Assembly (NCBI GenBank): GCA_963729625.1
Contig: CAVSOU010000016.1
Coordinates: 1-64,000 of the forward strand
DNA length: 64,000 nucleotides
Direction of reading: 5' to 3'
Origin: an uncultured bacterium
GTDB taxonomy: Bacteria > Chloroflexota > UBA5177 > JANWHV01
Below are positions 1,873 through 59,065 of the stretch, one piece after another. A program made the translations under genes and the position numbers. The first letter of the stretch is position 1. Each line of letters begins with the position of its first letter. Below the pieces are notes generated by a model. That model was not told the origin of the DNA, did not search any database, and saw only the letters and a list, made by a program, of their open reading frames with translations.

Positions 1873-2045
1873 GGCTCGTCGGTCCATCCTCTGCCGATGA
1901 TGGGCAATGTCGGCATCGCCGGCGCAGCGCTGCGCAACTGGGTGCACAGCCTGCACGCTGCCCTTGACGGCAAGGGCGTGTATGCCGGGCACGTGGCGAT
2001 CAGCGCTTGGATCGGGCGCGATCCGGGTGTCACGCCGGACGCAAT
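1873..2045 (+). pseudogene. Short-chain dehydrogenase (SDR) C-terminal fragment
   Basis: MMGNVGIAGAALRNWVHSLHAALDGKGVYAGHVAI; no Rossmann N-terminus; boundaries approximate. Confidence 0.55.
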
Positions 2046-2377
2046 GTGGGTCTGGGGCCGACCAGCGCCACGACATCGGCACCTACGGCGCTCCGCGGGC
2101 GCACACCCTCATTGTTACCGTGTACACGCTCTACCCTGTGGGCACCGATTCTGTTCCATGGTAGGTAGATCGTCTGAGCAGACTGACGATGCCACTGCCG
2201 CCATGAGGGAACTGGAAAGCGTACTGCGCTGAAACGTGCACGGTGCGTTTGGGGAGGGGCCGACGGGACAGGGCTGCGCAAGCAACACCTCATGATTGAG
2301 CGGCTGATGGCCCGTACGCCGCGCGGCAGGCGGCGCTGGACGCGGTGCCAGACGTCCCTGGAGCGAACGCGCGAGTG

Positions 2378-3768
2378 TTAGGCACTCGTGAGGGCATACA
2401 CGACGAGCGGCTTGTTGTCCGACTCGGTCATAACCAGGCGTGAGCCCCCAGCCAGGCTGATAGCTGCTCGGCGTGGACCGTAGCCGGCGCGCGCCACGAA
2501 CATCGCTTGGCGAACGGTCTTGCCCTGCGCGCCGAGCACGGCGAGCTGCAGGTGCGCAATCAACACCGTCTGGTCCTGCAAGGCAATGCCATAGAGCGCG
2601 CTGAACGTCTGATGCGGGCCTCTGAGCGCGACGATGTTCAGAGTCGCGGAGCCACAGCCATTGGCATAGAGCGACCACTGTTCCAGCGCCACCTGGTGAA
2701 TCATGGACATGTCCAGGGTGGTGGGGTGCACATTGCAGGACACCGTCAGCGCGCGCAGGTCAACGGCCGTGCCACCGACGGTACTGACCGGAGGCTCGCT
2801 GGGAGCGAACACGCGATCGTAAAGCGTGGCGTGTCCGGACAGCTGCATGTCGTAGAGGACGCCATTGGCGTTTCCGGTGAAGCTGATTTGCACGATGCTG
2901 GCGCCGCTGATGCTGGCGCTGATCGGCACGCCGGGCTGACCCTGATTGGCCGTCACGCTCACGGTCGAGAACGGCTTGCTGTTCTGATCCAGGACGACGA
3001 GGTGCGCGGTGATCGTCTTGTTGTCGGAGTCGTCGGATACGCCGATCCTTGCGCTGAAAGTCCCGGTTGCGTCGGTCATGATCAGCTCCGCGATGCCGCA
3101 CGTATCGACGGCCAGGTAGGTGTCGCGCGACACGAGCTTGTGGGCGACAGTCAGATCCGCCGTGCCGAGATTGGCATTGCACAGGCCGACGACCGCGTCG
3201 GGAGAAACGGGGACGGGCGCGCCATTGGGGCTGCCGAAGTCCTGACGATCCGGATTGTGATGCGGCGCCACAGCAGTGGGAAGGAAGCTGAGGCCGGCCA
3301 CCAGCAGGTTGACGTTGGTATTCCCGGCATCCATGGTGAACGTCACGGTACGCCCGCCCGCCAGGTTGACCCAGAGTGGCTGAAGCCCGCTGCCGAGGTA
3401 GGTCAGACCAATCGCCTTGCGCAGCAAGTGGCCGCCGGCATCGAGCACGGGCAAACCCACCTGTGTGGGTAGGCTGCTATAGTCCGAGGAGTCGATCTGT
3501 CCGTAGCGGAGTGCCAGCGCACCCGTCGCGGTGGCTGCGACCTGTATCGTGACTTTGCTGCAACCACCCTGCAGCTCCAGGGCTGTCGTCGCGGAGATCG
3601 CGATCGCGCTGACTGTACTCGCCTGGGAGAGTGCGGCGGCATTGCAGTCGAGATGCGGGGCGCTCGCCGGCACCGGCACGCCGCCCAGCGGCACGCCGCC
3701 ACTGATTAACGGTGTGGCTGCGAGCGCCCGCGCGGTGCCGGACAGCTTGAGATTGTACAGGTATGGCC
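2378..3768 (-). pseudogene. Repeat-domain extracellular protein (NPCBM/NEW2-like beta-sandwich repeats), 5' truncated
   Basis: Repeated TFSARIGVSDD / TFSALYGIALQD...PISASISGASIVQI units; 5' end replaced by ISL3 sequence. Confidence 0.55.
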
Positions 3769-4240
3769 CGTGGCGCGACCAAGGCAGGCAGGCGCTCGGT
3801 AAAGATGCGACGCGGACACCAGCGGACGCGACAGACGAACCGGCGGACGGTAAGGAGGATAGTAACCGGGGTGCTGCCGACGCTAAGGTCCGTGATCGTG
3901 CGGCGGTAGCGACTGTGCATGCGGCGCGAGCGACACCGGCATACGGGGCAGCGCCCGCGTCGTGCACGCGCCTTCGCGACAACCTGGATGCCGTCAGCAG
4001 CCCAACTGATGTGCTCAATCTGGATATCGGTCAAACCAGGGAACAACATTGCCGTCAGCACGGTGTGCCTGCCTCTCTCCAGGAGAACCTGAAACCTGGA
4101 GCTTTAGGCTAGCGTTCCTGTGCGTAGCGGACCAGCAGAGCTGACAGCCGCACCTCTCAAGCGGCACGTGGCTCTATCCGCTGACTGCGGTCCTCTGGAA
4201 ACACCGGAGAGAACCCCGTCATCAAATATGCCCATGAACC
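3769..4240 (-). mobile_element. ISL3-family left end plus transposase N-terminal fragment (CDS 4061 to ~3769)
   Basis: CPVCRCRSRRMHSRYRRTITDL...VRRFVC....CPRRIFTERLP zinc finger; end-like GGTTCATGGGCATATTTGATG from 4240. Confidence 0.8.
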
Positions 4241-16063: not shown

Positions 16064-16714
16064 ATGACGACAGAGCAGAAGCACACTAGCACGCACATAC
16101 TCCGGAGCGGGCGGCCGCCAAAGCTCCCCGAGGAGCGACGCGTACAGTTTTCGGTGCGGGTTGGCCCCGACTATATGCCCGTGCTGGATGCGTTGTCCAG
16201 CGAGCTGCAGTTGACGCGCTCAAGTACGATTGAGGCAGCTCTTGACGCGTTGTTGGCACAGCATCCCCGTCTGCAGGAGGAGACCATGGCAAGAGTGCAC
16301 CACCACGAAGGAGTCGTGACCCTGGATGAGCAGCAATTGACCCAATTGCGCGCGATGGCCGCTGGCGCAGAGACGCATGGCTTTCCCGCGCCCATGGCGC
16401 AGACGTTGCGTGACCTGGTGCAGCAGCTCTCGCAGGGCGAGCCGGTCACGGTCTACCCCGACGACACGGCACTGACGATCGCGCAGGCATCGGACCTGTT
16501 CCACATTGTGCCGCCTAATCTCGACAGGCGTCTGGACGAGGGGGTGATTCCCTTCTTCGTGCGCGGGTCGCAGCGCTACGTCTACATCCGGGACATGATC
16601 GCCTATGACCGGGAGAAGCGCGCCGAGCAGCACCGCTTGATGGGCATCATCCTGGAGACTTCGCAGGAGATGGGAGCCTACGACCTGCCACCGTCCGTCG
16701 CGCCGCAGGCGTGA
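16064..16714 (+). CDS. Putative antitoxin: RHH-like N-terminus plus excisionase-like HTH
   Basis: VQFSVRV...LTRSSTIEAAL; GEPVTVYPDDTALTIAQASDL...LDEGVIPF; overlaps PIN gene start. Confidence 0.75.
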   Translation: MTTEQKHTSTHILRSGRPPKLPEERRVQFSVRVGPDYMPVLDALSSELQLTRSSTIEAALDALLAQHPRLQEETMARVHHHEGVVTLDEQQLTQLRAMAAGAETHGFPAPMAQTLRDLVQQLSQGEPVTVYPDDTALTIAQASDLFHIVPPNLDRRLDEGVIPFFVRGSQRYVYIRDMIAYDREKRAEQHRLMGIILETSQEMGAYDLPPSVAPQA

Positions 16715-17349
16715 TGCCCCCGCAGGATCCGCGCGACCGGCATGTGGTCATTGACGCCAACGCGCTCTATGCCATGCCGCTGGCGGACACACTGCTGACC
16801 GCTGCCACGGCAGACAACCGGCTCTTCCAATTGCGCTGGAGTGCAGACCTGCTGCAAGAAGTGCGAGAGACCATGGAGCGGCATGGCCTCTCGGCTACCG
16901 CGGTTGAACGGCGCATCGGCGCAATGGCACAGAGCTTCCTCGACGAGGAGGTGCGTGGCTACCAGGAGCTGATTCCGCACCTGCAGCTCCCCGACCCCGA
17001 CGATCGACACGTGCTTGCAGCCGCCATCCATGCGCAGGCTGAGGTGATCGTGACGGACAACCTGAAGGACTTTCCACCTGCGGTGTTGGCCCCGCATGGG
17101 CTATGTGCGCAGAGCCCGAGCGAGTTCCTCACCGAGCTGGCCACGCAGTTTCCAGAGCAGATGCTTACCATCGTGCGTGAGCAAGCCGATCGCCTGCAGC
17201 ACCCAGCCATCACGTTCGATCAGTTGCTCCGTGTGATTGAGCAGTATGCACCGGATTTCAGCCGGATCTTGCGTGACCTGGAGATCCGCGATCGGGAGAT
17301 CGGCGCCCCACCGAGCGAGCCAGTGACACTGCCCGACGAGTCCGTATAG
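16711..17349 (+). CDS. PIN-domain protein (VapC-like toxin)
   Basis: VVIDANALY, LPDPDDRHVLAAA, IVTDNLKDFP. Confidence 0.9.
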   Translation: MMPPQDPRDRHVVIDANALYAMPLADTLLTAATADNRLFQLRWSADLLQEVRETMERHGLSATAVERRIGAMAQSFLDEEVRGYQELIPHLQLPDPDDRHVLAAAIHAQAEVIVTDNLKDFPPAVLAPHGLCAQSPSEFLTELATQFPEQMLTIVREQADRLQHPAITFDQLLRVIEQYAPDFSRILRDLEIRDREIGAPPSEPVTLPDESV

Positions 17350-26579: not shown

Positions 26580-26749
26580 GGGGAACCCTTCCCCTCTTGG
26601 GGGCACGTGGCTATTCGAGCCTTTCAGCGCGAACTGCTTTTGCAGGCGGGACGGCTCTTGCCTCTGAGCGCGCCGTGACTGACCGTCAGTGCGCCGCGCC
26701 ATGATGCTGCAAGCGTTCCGCGAGCGCGGCATAGCGCCGGCCGGCCTGC

Positions 26750-27513
26750 GCCACATTGCCGTGCAGATTCTCGAATTCTCCCTTGCCTTCGAGTCCGCGC
26801 GCCGGGGTGTGCGCTCGATCCTGTTCAACGCGCTTGAGGCTGATACCGCAGCGAAGGCGCAATGTGAGCAGTATCTCGAGCCGCACGAGTTTCGTAACCT
26901 CGATCACTTCCTCGACTACCTGGTCCATGACAGCCCGTTCGCGGCTCTGGTCATCATTGATGAGTTGCCCGACAGGCTTGAGAGCGTCCTAATCAACCGC
27001 TTCCGTTTTGGCGTTGAGGTCCTAGAAGTGGCGCGCTATGAGGACGAGCACGGGGAGCGGTTTTACCGCTTCAAGCCGTTCCTGGCAGACGTCAGCGCCG
27101 AGATTGCTGCGGTGCAGAAATCCGGATCGAACGGCACCCCGGTGCTGTCGCAGGATGCGCTCGACACTATTGTCGTTCCGGCACGTGAGGACGGCTTCCA
27201 GGAGGTATTCCTGGGAGAGAACAAATGGTATTCCATCCGCATCAGCGGCACTATGATCCCGCAGATCAAGTACATCGCGGCATACCAAGTAGCGCCGCGA
27301 TCGGCGATCACGTATATGGCACCGGTCGTGTCGATCGAGCCTTCGGACAAGGCCGGGAAGTACTGCGTCAACTTCGCTGAGCCCGCGCACGCTTTGCCCT
27401 CGCCCATCACGCTCGTGCCTGGCGGTCACGTCAAGGCACTGCAAAACTTGCGTTACACCAATCACGAGCGGTTGGAAGCGGCCAGGACGCTGGATGAGGT
27501 GTGGCAGGCTTAA
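26750..27513 (+). pseudogene. Hypothetical protein, probably nuclease-associated, 5' truncated
   Basis: LVIIDE; C-terminal DTIVVPAREDGFQEVFLGENKWYSIRI...IAAYQVAPRSAIT domain recalled from GIY-YIG/NucS-like proteins. Confidence 0.55.
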
Positions 27514-27770
27514 TGCAGTCACTCAGACGAGCCACCGTGGTTGAGCCAGCCAGTGAAGTTTGCGGCCCGCGGCCGTCGGCGTGGTTTCGCCACTTGGTCC
27601 CGCGCCGTTGCAACCCCACCTCGGCTGCGGTGTTCTCGGTGACGAGCGAGCCCTTCCGGATGAACTTGCGCACTATCGGCAAACTCTTGTGGCCGGTCTG
27701 GTCCATGATCGCCCGCTCGGAGACACCGGCGGCTGCTGCCGCCGTGGCTAGGCCGGCGCGCAGACTGTGT

Positions 27771-28603
27771 GACGCTCTGCCAGAATTCCCTTGACACATA
27801 CTTGCAGTCGTCGCGGAGACGATCATATCCTCAAGTGTCCAGACGGCAACGCGGGGTCAAGACGTGAGCGAGATGTGGGAGAGCAAGCGGGGCGGGGTGG
27901 CGATGAGTGCGCTAGCCGACAGTTCACGCGTGCGGGTCCTTGCGGCGCATGAGGCAGGCCATGCGCTTGCTGGCCACGCTGCCGGGTGCTATTTTCGGCG
28001 CGTCACTATCGATCCGCGTGTGATTGGCGACCGTCCAAACGTCCTGGGCTTCACGGAGTTCGATCCGCTGCTTGAGACTGGTACTGAGCCTGGAGCTATT
28101 CGCGATCCCCAGGTCGTCCTTCGCATCGCTCTCGCGGGCGCGCTTGCCTGCAAGGTCGTCACCGGTCACCACCATTGGAATGATGCTAAGGACGACATCG
28201 GCAAAGCGGCGCACGTCGCGGCCCACCCTCTCGACGGCCCACTACCTCCCCTGCTGAACCCGGAGACGATCCGAGACGTCATAAAGACACGACTGCAAAC
28301 CGGAACGCTGTCGTTGAGTGGTGACCTCGCTAGGGACGCGCAGATTCGCGACATTGCGCGGTGCGCTGTCGCCACGCGGGCGTGGTTGCGTACTGACGTC
28401 GTTCGCGTAGACCTGCTGGCGGTCACGCACGCGCTGGCGGCCGCACTGACGCTCTCGTACGACGAATTCAGGGACGTCCTGAGGACGCACAAGCCAACCG
28501 AGTCCGTGTGAGCGCTCGCGATCTGCCTGGGTTGTATTCCGATAGATAGACCCGTCTCACGGTAGAGTGCCAAGATGTGTCAAGTGAATTCTGGCAGAGC
28601 GTC
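27771..28603. mobile_element. Non-autonomous TIR cassette (MIC/tIS-like) with passenger gene
   Basis: TIR GACGCTCTGCCAGAATTC(C/A)CTTGACACAT 28/29 identical; TSD GACTGTGT at 27763-27770 and 28604-28611; no transposase. Confidence 0.9.
27864..28511 (+). CDS. HEXXH zinc metallopeptidase-like protein (M41/FtsH-protease-domain-like)
   Basis: AAHEAGHALAG, VTIDP, IALAGALA, A.DD. Confidence 0.7.
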   Translation: MSEMWESKRGGVAMSALADSSRVRVLAAHEAGHALAGHAAGCYFRRVTIDPRVIGDRPNVLGFTEFDPLLETGTEPGAIRDPQVVLRIALAGALACKVVTGHHHWNDAKDDIGKAAHVAAHPLDGPLPPLLNPETIRDVIKTRLQTGTLSLSGDLARDAQIRDIARCAVATRAWLRTDVVRVDLLAVTHALAAALTLSYDEFRDVLRTHKPTESV

Positions 28604-28730
28604 GACTGTGTCCCGCATTGATCGCGGGTTCCAGGTCCGCGGCCCGCGCCACGCGCTTGACGATCAGCGCTAGCGAACTGAACATCTCATGCGTTTGATC
28701 GCCAACGGTGTGGGGGGTAATCCCAGCGTC

Positions 28731-29318
28731 TCAAGTCCTGCCGAAGATCTCTATTACTAAGCTCCGCAACTCCGCGACCAGTTCTGGGTTGGAGTGCGTC
28801 TCATCAAACACCTTCACCAGAGACCAATACCACCAGTCCTGCTCCTCGCGACCGGCATTGAATCTCTTCCATACGTCGTCACCTATTCGGCGATAGTCCT
28901 GCAGAGTAGCCCTGGCGTTGTCCAGCTTGTCGGCCAGCGCGACCAGTCTGACGGACGGATCCGCTCTCCGCAGGTGCTGCAGGTACGTCTCTTTGCGCTC
29001 ACGCCATGGTGGTTTGGGGACCTGATCCGTCTCGGTACAGCCATCCACTATTTGGGCCACTGTATCGCCGAAAAGATCGCGGATTCGCTGCAGCGTTGGG
29101 GCTCCGCCCTGATCTTCGACGGCATCATGCAGGAGAGCCGCAATGGCTTCATCTTCCGTGCCGCCCGCGCGGAGCACAATGCTTGTGACGGCCAACAGAT
29201 GAGCGATGTACGGGACGCGGCTCGACTTGAGAGTCTGGGTCACGTGCAATTGAGCCGCGAAGCTTAACGCCTGGTCAAACCGATCGGACAGACGGGCAGC
29301 CTTGGGATCTTCGCTCAT
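28731..29318 (-). CDS. HD-domain protein (Mesh1/small alarmone hydrolase-like)
   Basis: ALSFAAQLH, PYIAHLLAV, AALLHDAVEDQ, LADKLDN. Confidence 0.88.
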   Translation of the reverse strand: MSEDPKAARLSDRFDQALSFAAQLHVTQTLKSSRVPYIAHLLAVTSIVLRAGGTEDEAIAALLHDAVEDQGGAPTLQRIRDLFGDTVAQIVDGCTETDQVPKPPWRERKETYLQHLRRADPSVRLVALADKLDNARATLQDYRRIGDDVWKRFNAGREEQDWWYWSLVKVFDETHSNPELVAELRSLVIEIFGRT

Positions 29319-29409
29319 CGTCGCTCCTTGGTCTCTTCGCCTACCACCTGAATGATACGATTGGTGTGGCCCGACTGCGGTGCAAGGCCTACAGCTACGC
29401 AACCACGGA

Positions 29410-33129: not shown

Positions 33130-33865
33130 TGGATGCTGCCCCTGCCGGTGTTTGCGCGCCAGCTTGAGCGAGGGCTGGAAGAAGTTCACCTAGAGTCGCA
33201 CCGCGCGGTACAGCTCCGCCAGTTGCCGGCAGGCTCGCTCGCCATCCAAGCGGTCATAGCCGACGAGTTGCCGCACGATGGTACCGTTCTTCTGCTCCAC
33301 GTAGCACTGGTCGTTGCTCCGGTACGTGCGGCCTCGCGTGAAGGTGATGCGTTCCTCGGTGCAGTAGGCGAGCACTGGGTAGTTGAGAAACTCCCCGCCG
33401 TTGTCGGTATCCAAGCCAAGCAGCGGAAAGGGCAGCAGCCGGCGGACCTCCGCTGAGCCCGCCAGCACGTCGGCGTGCGTGCGGTGCAGCAGCGGCAGGC
33501 ACTCAGTCCAGCCGGTAGCGACATCCGTGAGCACCAGGGTACTCAAGAAGGACCCTTCCGCCATCGTGCCGCAGTGTGCTACCGAGTCCGCCTCCATGAA
33601 GCCCGGCCGCACATCGTTCCACTCGGCAAAGGTCCGAATCGGCACCTGATGCTTGAGCAGGCGACCTGCCTTCGTGGTGCCAATGCCCCGCGGTTGGTCG
33701 CGCAGACGGGCTGCATGCAGGAGCCGGTCTGCGGTGGCCGGGCTCAGCTGCAACAGATCCCGGCGGACTGCCTCACACAGCAGCAAATGCCCGTGCCGCT
33801 CCAGTGTTGGCACCAGATCCGGCAGGAAGGGCACCAGCCGTTTCGCACACACATAGTTCGTCGTC
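33130..33865 (-). pseudogene. ISNCY-like integrase-core transposase fragment
   Basis: SPATADRLL, LLKHQVPIRT, EADSVAHCG, DVATGWTE, DTDNGGEFLN, NDQCYVEQKN; internal TAG before VNFFQPS. Confidence 0.85.
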
Positions 33866-34019
33866 ATCGACGTTGAGCGGTGCCGCCGCAGCGCGCGCCG
33901 AATAGCGCCCCTCGCGCTGCCCCGGCGGCCCGCCTGGCGGATGGCCATGGCGGCGAACGGTGAGGAGGCCACCAGCCGCGTCGACAGTCATGCCGCCTGC
34001 AAGTCCAGCGCAGCTTGAG

Positions 34020-52560: not shown

Positions 52561-53010
52561 GGCTCTCCGGCATAGTTGGTGCACTGCTTGAGCCCGCTAT
52601 GTGGCTAGCATGACGCGTACGCGGAGGAGATCAAAGCCCGATCGCCCATATCCGCTTCTCTTGATTAACTTGAGTCTGTTCACCTGGCCTTCCACCTGCC
52701 CCTGGCTCTCTGTGTGGGTGAGGGCGGCTTCGACCGCCGTACGATCGCGCCAGATGCCGTGGGCGACGCTGATGAACTCGGCAATGCCGCTCAGCTGGAC
52801 GCCCTTCAACCATTGGTACAGCCCGGAAACGTCGCGCTCGCGAATGAGCGTCTGGAACTCTCGCGTCAGCGCCTGCGCCAACGCAATCTGGGGACAGCGG
52901 TGAAACAGCCTGGTCACATAGGCCTGCTCCTCAGCAGTGAACCTGTCCGGCTCCTTCAGGAGCAACCAACACGCGGCGCGCGGAGAGTACCCAGCGGTGG
53001 CCGCCATGCT
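52561..53010 (-). mobile_element. ISL3-family transposase C-terminus and right end
   Basis: [29 protein letters not shown]; end GGCTCTCCGGCATAGTTGGTG at 52561. Confidence 0.85.
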
Positions 53011-57403: not shown

Positions 57404-59065
57404 GTAACTGGTCAGACTGCTGGCAAAGGAATTCAGGCGCAGCTCAGGTCTGGCTGAGGAGACAGACGAGCAGGGCCAGACACGCCATGAAGGGGTTGAG
57501 TCCCGGCGCCTGCCACGTGGCGAACAGGCTGGTCAGGCGCGTGCGGGTGGCAGACCCTTCGGGGCTGCGGGTGCCGCCGCTGATCTTGCGCGCCACAGCC
57601 AGCGGCCGGATGCGGCGCTCGGCGAGGTTGTTGTCGGCGGCGAGGCCCGGGACGAGCACGAACTGGAAGAGTTCGGCCTCATGGCGCAACAGCAGCTTGG
57701 CGGTGGCCTGGCAGGGATGGCCCTTGACCTGGGCGTAGCGCAACCCCAGCCGGTGGCTCACTGCCACCAGCCGGTCATAGGCGTGTTGCCGCTGCGCCGC
57801 CGTGGGCGGGTCCGTCGCGTGCACGAACGCCACCGCCCGGTCGTAGAGGCGGCGTACGGCGCGCGCCCAGGCGCGGACCGCCGCATCCTGGGGGTGCCGC
57901 TCCTTGAGGTCGTGCAGGAGGCGGAGCAGGTGCACCCAGCAGCGTTGGTGCTTGCCGGGATAGACGTTGTAGGCGGCGTAGAAGTCGGTGACGAGGTGGC
58001 CAGTGAAGCTGCCGCGCAGCCGCTCAAACACCGCGCCGGCGCGGCTGGCATCGCGCTCGACATAGCACACCGGCGCTGGCCCTGGGGTGGTCAGCAGCCA
58101 GAGGTAGCCGTGCTGGCCGTCCTCGCGCCAGCCGGTCTCGTCCGCGTGCAGGATGGGGCTGGCTTGCGCCTGGGCCTGGAGGTCGGCGACCGCAGGCGCC
58201 GCCACCTGGGCGATGCGCCGCAGGAGGTCCACGATGGCGCCGCGGCTCAGGTGCAGCCCGTGCAGCGTCTGCAGGTAGAGCTGGATCTGCCCGATCGGCA
58301 GCCGCAGGGCCGTGCGCAGCGTCGCTACCAGGCTGGCCACGCCCAGGCCGAGGCGGCCCTGCCCCACGGCCAGGTCCGCCGGCAGCGGCGGCACGCACCA
58401 GCGCTGGCAGACCGGACACCAGCGCCGGACGAAGGTGTGCTGCGTCACCACCACCGGCGCGGGCGGCGGCAGGTCCACCACCTGCCGCTCCCACCAGACG
58501 CTGCCGCCGCGCAGCCGGGAATCACAGTCCGGACAACGCTCGTAGGTATGCGTGGCAAACGCCGTCGGCGGGTCGAGCGGTCGGCCGTGATTCTGCTCGG
58601 GAGCGCGGACCCGACGCGGCGTGGCCGGCTCCTCTCGGCGCTGGCGGGCCGCCTTGCCCAGCTTGCGCCGCCGCTGCGCGTCCTGCTCGAGTTCGGCCAA
58701 GCGGGCAGCGGTGGCCACCACCTGCCCTTCCAGCGCGACTACCCGCTCCTCACGCGCTCGCGCCTGTGCCTCCAGTTCCCCTACGCGGCCATCGCGGGCG
58801 CGGACCTGCGCTTCCAGGTCCTGCACGCGCTCGCGCAACGCCGCATTCTCGGACTGCAGTGCCGCGATGGCGGAGGCATCAGTTGCTGCGTGCTGTTCGT
58901 CCATGGGCGGGCTGACCAACGCGGAACCACGGGGGAACGACTCGTACCGCCCTCGGCGACTGCGGTGGCAGCTGGCCAGGCGTGTTCCCTACGCTAGCAG
59001 GCCCGCGCGTAATGCGCAAGCTCCGCCCGTCTGCTCAACCCGGACGCGGAAGTCTGAACTCTTAC
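57404..59065 (-). mobile_element. IS66-family element (single transposase)
   Basis: TIRs GTAACTGGTCAGACT / GTAAGAGTTCAGACT (12/15); no matching TSD. Confidence 0.8.
57444..58919 (-). CDS. IS66-family transposase
   Basis: Coiled coil, CPDC, QVVDLP, HADETGWR, VTDFYAAY, QRCWVHLLR, DNNLAERRIR. Confidence 0.93.
   Translation of the reverse strand: MVSPPMDEQHAATDASAIAALQSENAALRERVQDLEAQVRARDGRVGELEAQARAREERVVALEGQVVATAARLAELEQDAQRRRKLGKAARQRREEPATPRRVRAPEQNHGRPLDPPTAFATHTYERCPDCDSRLRGGSVWWERQVVDLPPPAPVVVTQHTFVRRWCPVCQRWCVPPLPADLAVGQGRLGLGVASLVATLRTALRLPIGQIQLYLQTLHGLHLSRGAIVDLLRRIAQVAAPAVADLQAQAQASPILHADETGWREDGQHGYLWLLTTPGPAPVCYVERDASRAGAVFERLRGSFTGHLVTDFYAAYNVYPGKHQRCWVHLLRLLHDLKERHPQDAAVRAWARAVRRLYDRAVAFVHATDPPTAAQRQHAYDRLVAVSHRLGLRYAQVKGHPCQATAKLLLRHEAELFQFVLVPGLAADNNLAERRIRPLAVARKISGGTRSPEGSATRTRLTSLFATWQAPGLNPFMACLALLVCLLSQT

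Follow-up and report, generated by a model that had tools for sequence, protein, structure and literature searches.

A probable mobile insertion cassette with an FtsH-type peptidase passenger in an integrase remnant of an uncultured Chloroflexota bacterium

What is the 833-nt element, bounded by inverted repeats, that interrupts an integrase-like reading frame of an uncultured Chloroflexota bacterium (GTDB lineage UBA5177; JANWHV01), and how did it come to lie there? The DNA analyzed, called the window throughout, is the whole stretch of 64,000 nt from position 1 of contig CAVSOU010000016.1 (assembly GCA_963729625.1), and the element spans positions 27771 to 28603. The source genome (G000; 5.4 Mb, 21 contigs, 87% complete) was compared with a congener from the same genus (G004). 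We consider it likely that the element is a mobile insertion cassette, a nonautonomous transposon in which two inverted copies of an end of about 50 to 70 nt enclose one passenger gene. The cassette entered its present site as one unit, duplicating 8 bp, and the same end stands at several unrelated sites in the genus and in environmental DNA, with different flanks at each. Its passenger is a complete FtsH-type peptidase domain that lacks both the AAA+ module and the membrane anchor. The features on which the argument depends are the following.

27611 to 27770, minus strand: distal piece of a tyrosine-recombinase remnant (HSLRAG...AAEVGL); PF00589 match with an E value of 5.7e-4, below the cut-off
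27763 to 27770, no strand assigned: left copy of the target-site duplication, GACTGTGT, abutting the left tip
27771 to 27844, plus strand: left terminal inverted repeat, core 27771 to 27821; nhmmer match to the end profile with an E value of 8.8e-15
27791 to 27796: TTGACA of the left repeat, facing inward
27864 to 28511, plus strand: passenger gene with an M41-type peptidase domain, 215 amino acids, with alternative starts given below
28534 to 28603, minus strand: right terminal inverted repeat, core 28553 to 28603; nhmmer match from 28603 to 28534 with an E value of 5e-15
28578 to 28583: TGTCAA of the right repeat (TTGACA inverted), facing inward
28604 to 28611, no strand assigned: right copy of the target-site duplication, GACTGTGT, abutting the right tip
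28612 to 28730, minus strand: proximal piece of the tyrosine-recombinase remnant, 39 codons, ...LALIVKRVARAADLEPAINAG, opening directly after the stop codon of an HD_4 gene

The anatomy bears out the original prediction, which had described an 833-bp element with inverted repeats alike at 28 of 29 positions and more weakly so to about 50 bp, an exact 8-bp duplication and a single open reading frame (ORF) filling the interior. The repeat arms (27771 to 27821 and 28553 to 28603) are 51 nt long, 80% complementary and separated by 731 nt. When they are aligned tip to tip, 28 of the first 29 bases are identical, the sole mismatch being position 19, and in a whole-genome BLAST the match of arm to arm had an E value of 4e-6. 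Both ends of the cassette match one end type over about 65 to 75 nt, and on the left the likeness to this end family extends to about 27844. The interior is unrelated to the subterminal module common to the other copies of the end, and it is filled by one credible ORF (27864 to 28511, plus strand) with the motif HEAGH at residues 29 to 33. The G+C content of the element is 62.1%, versus 63.4% for its surroundings. No Rfam match at an E value of 0.1 or lower was found in the end module, in a second repeat described below or in the cassette.

The insertion is read most directly from its target. On the minus strand, the left copy of GACTGTGT falls within a GHSLR motif, from the third base of its Gly codon through the complete His and Ser codons to the first base of its Leu codon. 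Excision of 27771 to 28611 in silico turns the minus strand into ...LALIVKRVARAADLEPAINAGHSLRAGLATAAAAAGVSERAIMDQTGHKSL..., and the restored frame reads ...LALIVKRVARAADLEPAINAGHSLRAGLATAAAAAGVSERAIMDQTGHKSLPIVRKFIRKGSLVTENTAAEVGL.... The congener carries an intact integrase of 335 amino acids (PF00589, E value of 4.5e-16), and the distal piece in the window is 79% identical to its residues 283 to 335, the last 53. An alignment of the restored window DNA with that gene crosses the junction without an insertion or deletion. The restored site is therefore colinear with an intact integrase and the insertion is real; the claim that removal of the element restores AGHSLRAG holds. The further claim that the element lies in the HSLR motif of a recombinase stands in part. 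The insertion does split the His-Ser codons, but the target is a stretch of only 93 codons, corresponding to residues 243 to 335, approximately, of the 335-amino-acid protein. In place of a complete tyrosine-recombinase catalytic domain (Arg...His-x-x-Arg...Tyr), there is this 3' remnant, whose stop codon has been lost; the frame of the distal piece continues without a stop to 27431, beyond the ...VGL at which the congener's gene ends. Judged by its sequence, the target is a 3' remnant and no working recombinase gene. No paralogue of the interrupted integrase occurs elsewhere in the source genome. A bias of the element toward integrase HxxR codons, which had been suggested, was not borne out: flanks were readable for seven ends, and these include one insertion inside an integrase gene, namely, the two ends of the cassette itself. 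The other five ends are outside such genes, with the closest one about 240 bp downstream.

The second body of evidence consists of other copies of the end. An nhmmer profile built from nine ends found four places only in the 5.4-Mb source genome, two of them the cassette arms. BLAST and a fuzzy search identified a third copy at C11:355575-355625, which extends to 200 nt (C11:355426-355625, 88%) by comparison with metagenome copies. A decayed copy of 91 nt, about 80% identical, lies at C8:295998-296088. In the congener a single end is present, at C17:185559-185609, and it lies on the downstream side of a XerC/D-like integrase gene, at a distance of about 240 bp. The end module was found in 2 of 401 sampled genomes of the phylum, both of this genus, and in the class set of 21 genomes it was restricted to the same two genomes (up to six of the genomes counted at class and phylum level carry an unpublished flag, namely, G018, G055, G175, G226, G271, and G343, and none of the individual loci or claims given here depends on them). 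A scan of metagenome contigs with a 21-base pattern gave seven loci, of which six were true ends, 88 to 90% identical over 51 to 52 nt to the right end in the window. These represent four distinct sites: L037, L038 (the same site as L040 and L041), L042, and L043. In all, the same end is present at at least seven sites besides the cassette. The original prediction had made its case depend on the repeats occurring elsewhere, and they do so on C11 and C8 of the source genome, in the congener and at the four metagenome sites.

Beyond the genus and the metagenomes the end was not seen. When 185,579 species genomes were scanned for an exact 18-mer, 20 matches were obtained, none of which extended (at best, 14 of the next 33 bases agreed); by our own arithmetic about 17 chance matches are expected, and all 20 were judged to be chance. 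Viral contigs and plasmids gave no end matches at all. The collection scans required exact patterns, so that diverged ends would be missed.

The copies agree in the features expected of a transposon end. The tip, GACGC, is common to all of them without exception, and the TTGACA is conserved in all close copies, the decayed C8 copy having TTGACG. The 8 to 12 bases outside the tip are unrelated among eight aligned ends (L043 offers only two flanking bases), which fits DDE-type transposition with variable target duplications and not a fixed crossover core. Inward from the tip, the metagenome copies and the C11 copy share 200 to 414 nt and then part from one another at different points. These other copies look like truncated relics amid mobile-DNA junkyards.

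One further copy deserves separate mention. Contig C21 terminates in 30 nt that agree with repeat positions 27 to 56 at 25 of 30 bases, and the assembly probably breaks there inside another copy of the repeat. The adjacent 1.2 kb (C21:41429-42572) has a G+C content of 54.6%, versus about 63% for the genome, and encodes a protein of 301 amino acids that reads inward from the repeat. This protein belongs to no Pfam or PADLOC family, and a language-model search gave only clusters of "hypothetical protein." Its gene is a possible second passenger of this end family. A search for a partner repeat near this contig end gave a best score no better than those of shuffled sequences.

Several observations at these loci are recorded here for their own sake. 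A second repeat of about 150 nt, 78 to 92% identical among copies, is found in the subterminal region of two metagenome ends and at three places in the source genome and the congener where there is no terminal repeat. Its positions include L042, about 271 to 422 nt inside the tip, C11:134037-134188 of the source genome, and C10:1055011-1055159 and C10:177360-177478 of the congener; in the source genome it lies about 450 nt upstream of a gene for an ATP-binding cassette (ABC) transporter solute-binding protein, and it has no Rfam match. At L043, positions 532 to 1404, the frame of a DUF4158 N-terminal domain is broken by a frameshift and then continues as the C-terminal motif of a tyrosine recombinase, LGHRNIQSSLIYAEV. 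Another DUF4158-like start is seen at about 1314, and the whole is a patchwork of Tn3-like pieces beside the end module. Locus L038 encodes an NrS-1-type primase-polymerase helix-bundle domain (1909 to 3156, minus strand; PF22763, E value of 1.5e-17). The same locus has, at about 3700 to 3990 on the plus strand, a zinc-finger/helix-turn-helix fragment that by eye resembles an IS6-type transposase N terminus, has no Pfam match and stops a short way outside the terminal-repeat tip.

The original prediction had called the passenger a stand-alone M41-like protease with an HEXXH motif in an element devoid of a transposase. The protein has 215 amino acids counted from the GTG at 27864, with ATG codons at 27873 and 27903 as alternative starts. 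By single-sequence searches it has hardly any relatives. When 5.8 billion proteins were searched through a word index, the passenger matched only itself, and a full HMMER scan of 1.84 billion representatives gave six proteins at an E value of 0.001 or lower, the closest having 170 amino acids and 41% identity. The NCBIfam FtsH equivalog model matched with an E value of 0.062, covering positions 416 to 509 of its 598 positions. Among the 21 class genomes, the query found the passenger in one, its own. No AAA domain was detected in it with Pfam, PADLOC and PHROGs gave no match, and no transposase family matched it in Pfam, NCBIfam or PHROGs.

A profile of the passenger and four relatives, compared with the Protein Data Bank (PDB), found FtsH chains with an E value of 2.9e-11 over the whole protease domain, a match spanning HEAGHA, the LAGxxAE helix, the Asp of "AEND" and the C-terminal "ETL..EE" helix. 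The passenger profile recovers 186 proteins at an E value of 0.001 or lower. Among the best 120 of these 186, many have 150 to 225 amino acids, most have precomputed PF01434 matches, and the source names include "ATP-dependent Zn protease" and "cell division protein FtsH." Residues A27, H29, E30, A31, H33, A34, G92, and D111 do not vary in an alignment of 49 sequences. The last of these corresponds to the Asp in "AEND" of FtsH, which we take, from the FtsH structure literature, to be the third zinc ligand. An AlphaFold2 model built from the 49-sequence alignment had a predicted local distance difference test score (pLDDT) of 87.0 and a predicted template modeling score (pTM) of 0.85; an earlier model from a five-sequence alignment, with a pLDDT of 44.1, was discarded. 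Foldseek comparison of the model with the PDB gave 42 matches at an E value of 0.001 or lower, the best at 1.1e-6. All 25 of the listed matches with an E value below 0.001 are chains of FtsH, YME1, AFG3L2, or FtsHi, and the template modeling scores, normalized to the query, are 0.55 to 0.61. Structure prediction, which had been proposed as a check, thus returned the FtsH protease-domain fold.

The passenger is a complete FtsH-type peptidase domain without an AAA+ module or a membrane anchor, and a transposase remnant is excluded. The only supported ORF of the element being M41-like, both parts of the earlier description, stand-alone protease and transposase-less element, are upheld. The whole protease domain aligns with those of Thermus thermophilus FtsH (PDB 2DHR) and Thermotoga maritima FtsH (3KDS and 2CE7). 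However, FtsH proteins have at least 600 amino acids, compared to 215 in the passenger, which has neither transmembrane segments nor the AAA+ ATPase module. With the domain complete and the zinc ligands and the catalytic Glu in place, the protein is probably an active cytoplasmic zinc metallopeptidase. Since it has no AAA+ unfoldase and no membrane anchor, it would cut peptides or unfolded substrates alone, or act with or against the FtsH of the host. Either role, on peptides and unfolded substrates or in connection with host FtsH-type machinery, is conjecture.

Going by sequence likeness, the passenger is a member of a loose set of stand-alone M41-domain proteins of 150 to 225 amino acids that are common in metagenomes. 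Among the papers listed by a literature search, judged by title or the start of the abstract, there was no functional study of such proteins. In the phylum, the contexts of two stand-alone M41 genes were inspected, a number too small to reveal a pattern, one lying between housekeeping genes and the other at L069 below helix-turn-helix proteins. At L069 (G336:C85; 1459 to 3516, minus strand), a stand-alone M41-like gene of 197 amino acids is directly downstream of two helix-turn-helix proteins, one of which has transposase/resolvase-type helix-turn-helix matches.

How, then, would such an element have moved? We propose that an autonomous relative, absent from the source genome or not assembled in it, would have provided a transposase of the DDE type that acted in trans on the two ends. 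A mobile insertion cassette is defined by two inverted repeats, no transposase, at least one gene, a size of 0.7 to 3 kb and movement in trans (PMC6199540; PMC4337579). The element under study has terminal inverted repeats, no transposase gene and a target-site duplication; it fits the definition by size and layout in all but one defining feature, an identified parent element.

A number of results weigh against the view that this is a mobile insertion cassette moved in trans. No autonomous partner with the same ends was found in the source genome, in the 21 class and 401 phylum genomes or in the 185,579 species genomes. There was likewise no cognate transposase beside the ends in metagenome contigs and no partner in viral contigs or plasmids. 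We infer movement in trans and claim no more for it, because no autonomous partner was found anywhere searched; of the earlier claim of a cassette mobilized in trans, the anatomy and the 8-bp duplication are what stands. The BLASTN search suggested for partners and other cargoes likewise gave further ends in the source genome and the congener and no autonomous element. No second inverted end was found at any of eight loci examined, so the window cassette is the only two-ended copy known, and the case for mobility comes from one insertion event. The genes just inside the other ends are inconsistent: L043 has a Tn3-type DUF4158 gene in fragments that is joined to the tail of an integrase, L038 has IS66 transposase fragments, and L042 has a BTAD regulator. 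The direct Pfam match of the passenger to PF01434 (M41) is below the cut-off, at 20.2 bits versus 29.9 (E value of 5.9e-4). Finally, an inward TTGACA in each repeat had been pointed out, and both are present and face inward, but a consensus scan called no sigma-70-like plus-strand promoter in either repeat or in 27600 to 28800. The TTGACA has no -10 partner at 16 to 18 nt in that scan, whose single match in 27600 to 28800 is on the minus strand, at 27849 to 27822.

Insertion-sequence families were compared as possible sources of the transposase. Target duplications of 8 bp are produced by ISL3, IS6, IS66, IS256, and IS1595, among others, and it is the 8-bp duplication in which the cassette resembles them. 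The cassette terminal repeats match none of the insertion sequences compared. An apparently intact ISL3 element resides at C21:15552-17340 of the source genome, with a frame of 575 amino acids, perfect 23-nt repeats (GGCTCTGAGCCACTTCTGATGCT) and an 8-bp duplication (AATAAACG). The ISL3 family was set aside, the resident ISL3 repeat aligning no better than shuffled sequences (1117 and 1103 of 2000 reach the score). For IS256, the source genome has a sole PF00872 locus (C5:87722-88827), with a coding sequence spread across three frames. The best inverted repeat beside it, 22 nt at 86%, is by eye unlike the cassette ends, and no PF00872 gene was found beside any end of the cassette's family. The Mutator-like assignment of the original prediction (IS256/ISKra4/ISLre2) is a guess from the length of the duplication and nothing else. 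No IS6-family genes were found in the source genome, and the copies in congeners do not have similar ends. The IS66 fragments of L038 and of the window are not bounded by the cassette repeats.

Four alternatives were considered, the first of which is that the cassette derives from the Tn3 family, in the manner of the TnXax1 cassettes, with a transposase of Tn3 type as the enzyme that mobilized it. Tyrosine recombinases are frequent among the genes of Tn3-type elements, and some ends have an integrase gene or a piece of one as a neighbor, namely, those in the window, in the congener and at L043. At L043, moreover, an ORF with DUF4158, the N-terminal domain of Tn3 transposases (E value of 3.7e-24), begins about 530 nt inside the end, and the congener has a weak DUF4158-like stretch (E value of 3.1e-6) about 1.3 kb from its end. 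Against these stand several facts. The L043 gene is in fragments and is joined to an integrase tail; since the loci diverge 260 to 414 nt inside the end, it may be a mere neighbor amid mobile-DNA junk. DUF4158 is found inside the end at just one of the four metagenome sites, and the weak stretch in the congener lies outside the tip. Tn3-family repeats start with GGGG, whereas the cassette tip is GACGC. The cassette duplication is 8 bp, not the 5 bp of Tn3 elements, the length given for Tn3-derived cassettes in PMC4337579. On balance, we regard a Tn3 origin as unlikely.

The second alternative would make the element a circular cassette integrated site-specifically by a tyrosine or serine recombinase, the 8-bp repeat being the crossover core and the inverted repeats the binding arms. 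Joined end to end, the element would have an 8-bp spacer between two inverted arms of 28 nt, an arrangement formally like a recombinase site, and integrase genes are near several of the loci. A fixed core would recur, however, and the bases adjoining the tips are unrelated among the other ends (with two flanking bases only at one of them). Likewise, the target arms beside GACTGTGT are unlike the element arms, and the source genome has no paralogue of the interrupted integrase. Site-specific integration is thus very improbable.

The third alternative, an autonomous insertion sequence mobilized by its only protein, the HEXXH protein, appeals to the minimal layout of the element (833 bp, one filling ORF, terminal repeats and an 8-bp duplication). 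It is scarcely credible given that the passenger is an FtsH protease domain by sequence, invariant residues and predicted fold and that neither DNA-binding nor nuclease/DDE features were detected in it. Of about 186 short relatives, the two with surroundings examined show no flanking inverted repeats detectable by BLAST; the other ends of the family are not beside a passenger homologue, which occurs in 1 of the 21 class genomes. The last, that a chance inverted repeat or an assembly chimera feigns a mobile element, could draw on the single two-ended copy and on public runs that cover the region too thinly for independent confirmation of the junctions, but it is extremely unlikely given an exact duplication touching both tips, an excision that restores a frame colinear with an intact homologue, independent copies of the end in other genomes and metagenomes, and one Logan contig that spans 28421 to 28580, the boundary of interior and right repeat, without differences. 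The three public DNA runs, all of one study, yielded short pieces only, with no contig across the element and no joints, and were uninformative as to polymorphism.

The stretch from 24 to 34 kb of the window contains several ORFs without family matches, a DinB-like gene and a weak rve-type fragment, and it is consistent with a decayed mobile region. Immediately beyond the proximal piece of the remnant is an HD_4/RelA-SpoT-type hydrolase-domain gene (28731 to 29402, minus strand; PF13328, E value of 3.9e-26; phrog_990, E value of 1.1e-24). Its stop codon is followed by the integrase remnant in the same frame, a junction that resembles a deletion or fusion scar. On the other side, an ORF of 274 amino acids (26689 to 27513, plus strand), without a Pfam, NCBIfam or PADLOC match and with a weak PHROGs match (E value of 0.09), converges on the remnant and overlaps its stop-less read-through at 27431 to 27610. 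The rve integrase-core fragment (33190 to 33972, minus strand) matches at an E value of 9.4e-5, below the cut-off, and a PIN_3-domain protein is encoded at 16711 to 17349 on the plus strand (E value of 4.2e-14); these two are further signs of mobile or toxin-antitoxin-type genes nearby. Insertion-sequence remains are abundant at the far end of the window as well, with an ISL3 transposase fragment (52612 to 52998, minus strand; PF01610, positions 108 to 240) and an IS66-like stretch (57488 to 58179, minus strand) that is 76 to 78% identical to the IS66 fragments of metagenome locus L038.

A wider reading goes further than the mobile insertion cassette itself. The ends might belong to an undescribed transposon family confined to this poorly sampled lineage and form a portable module that captures genes, with the FtsH-like peptidase as a cargo under selection that would either disturb the FtsH-type proteolysis of the host or feed into it. 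The module would comprise the terminal repeat of about 50 nt and 260 to 414 nt of shared subterminal sequence, and would repeatedly capture single host or foreign genes. Candidate cargoes would be the M41 peptidase described here and, possibly, the low-G+C gene for 301 amino acids at the C21 end, and the peptidase might, for example, cleave a regulator. We think this reading rather doubtful.

Apart from that, the locus offers a clean example of a mobile insertion cassette with a single gene, from an uncultured lineage of which few genomes are available (21 in the class), and it indicates that small stand-alone FtsH-type peptidase domains are able to travel as transposon cargo. It also defines a terminal-repeat family for which a transposase is not known, the 51-nt end and its subterminal module providing a handle for the autonomous element. 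The main value lies in annotation and in a lead on the biology of AAA-less M41 peptidases; no long-standing question is opened. This type of cassette is already known, and its cargo is unusual but comes from a widespread set of short M41-domain proteins. The original MIC231 cassette reportedly carries a peptidase gene as well, for a D-stereospecific endopeptidase; the word "endopeptidase" does not appear in PMC6199540.

Two known systems provide the closest comparisons. MIC231 from Bacillus cereus, a member of the IS231/IS4 group (Chen et al. 1999; De Palmenaer et al. 2004; both cited by PMC6199540), resides with its parent IS231 and has been shown experimentally to be mobilized in trans, whereas for the present cassette no parent or transposase was found; the two are alike in anatomy, target-site duplication included. 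The Tn3-derived, TnXax1-flanked cassettes of Xanthomonas, as presented in PMC4337579, differ in having 5-bp duplications and an identified active transposon, compared to the 8-bp duplication here and no identified transposon. They likewise consist of passengers between transposon-type repeats of less than 100 bp without a transposase, and they bring many different cargoes together with the same ends (PMC4337579).

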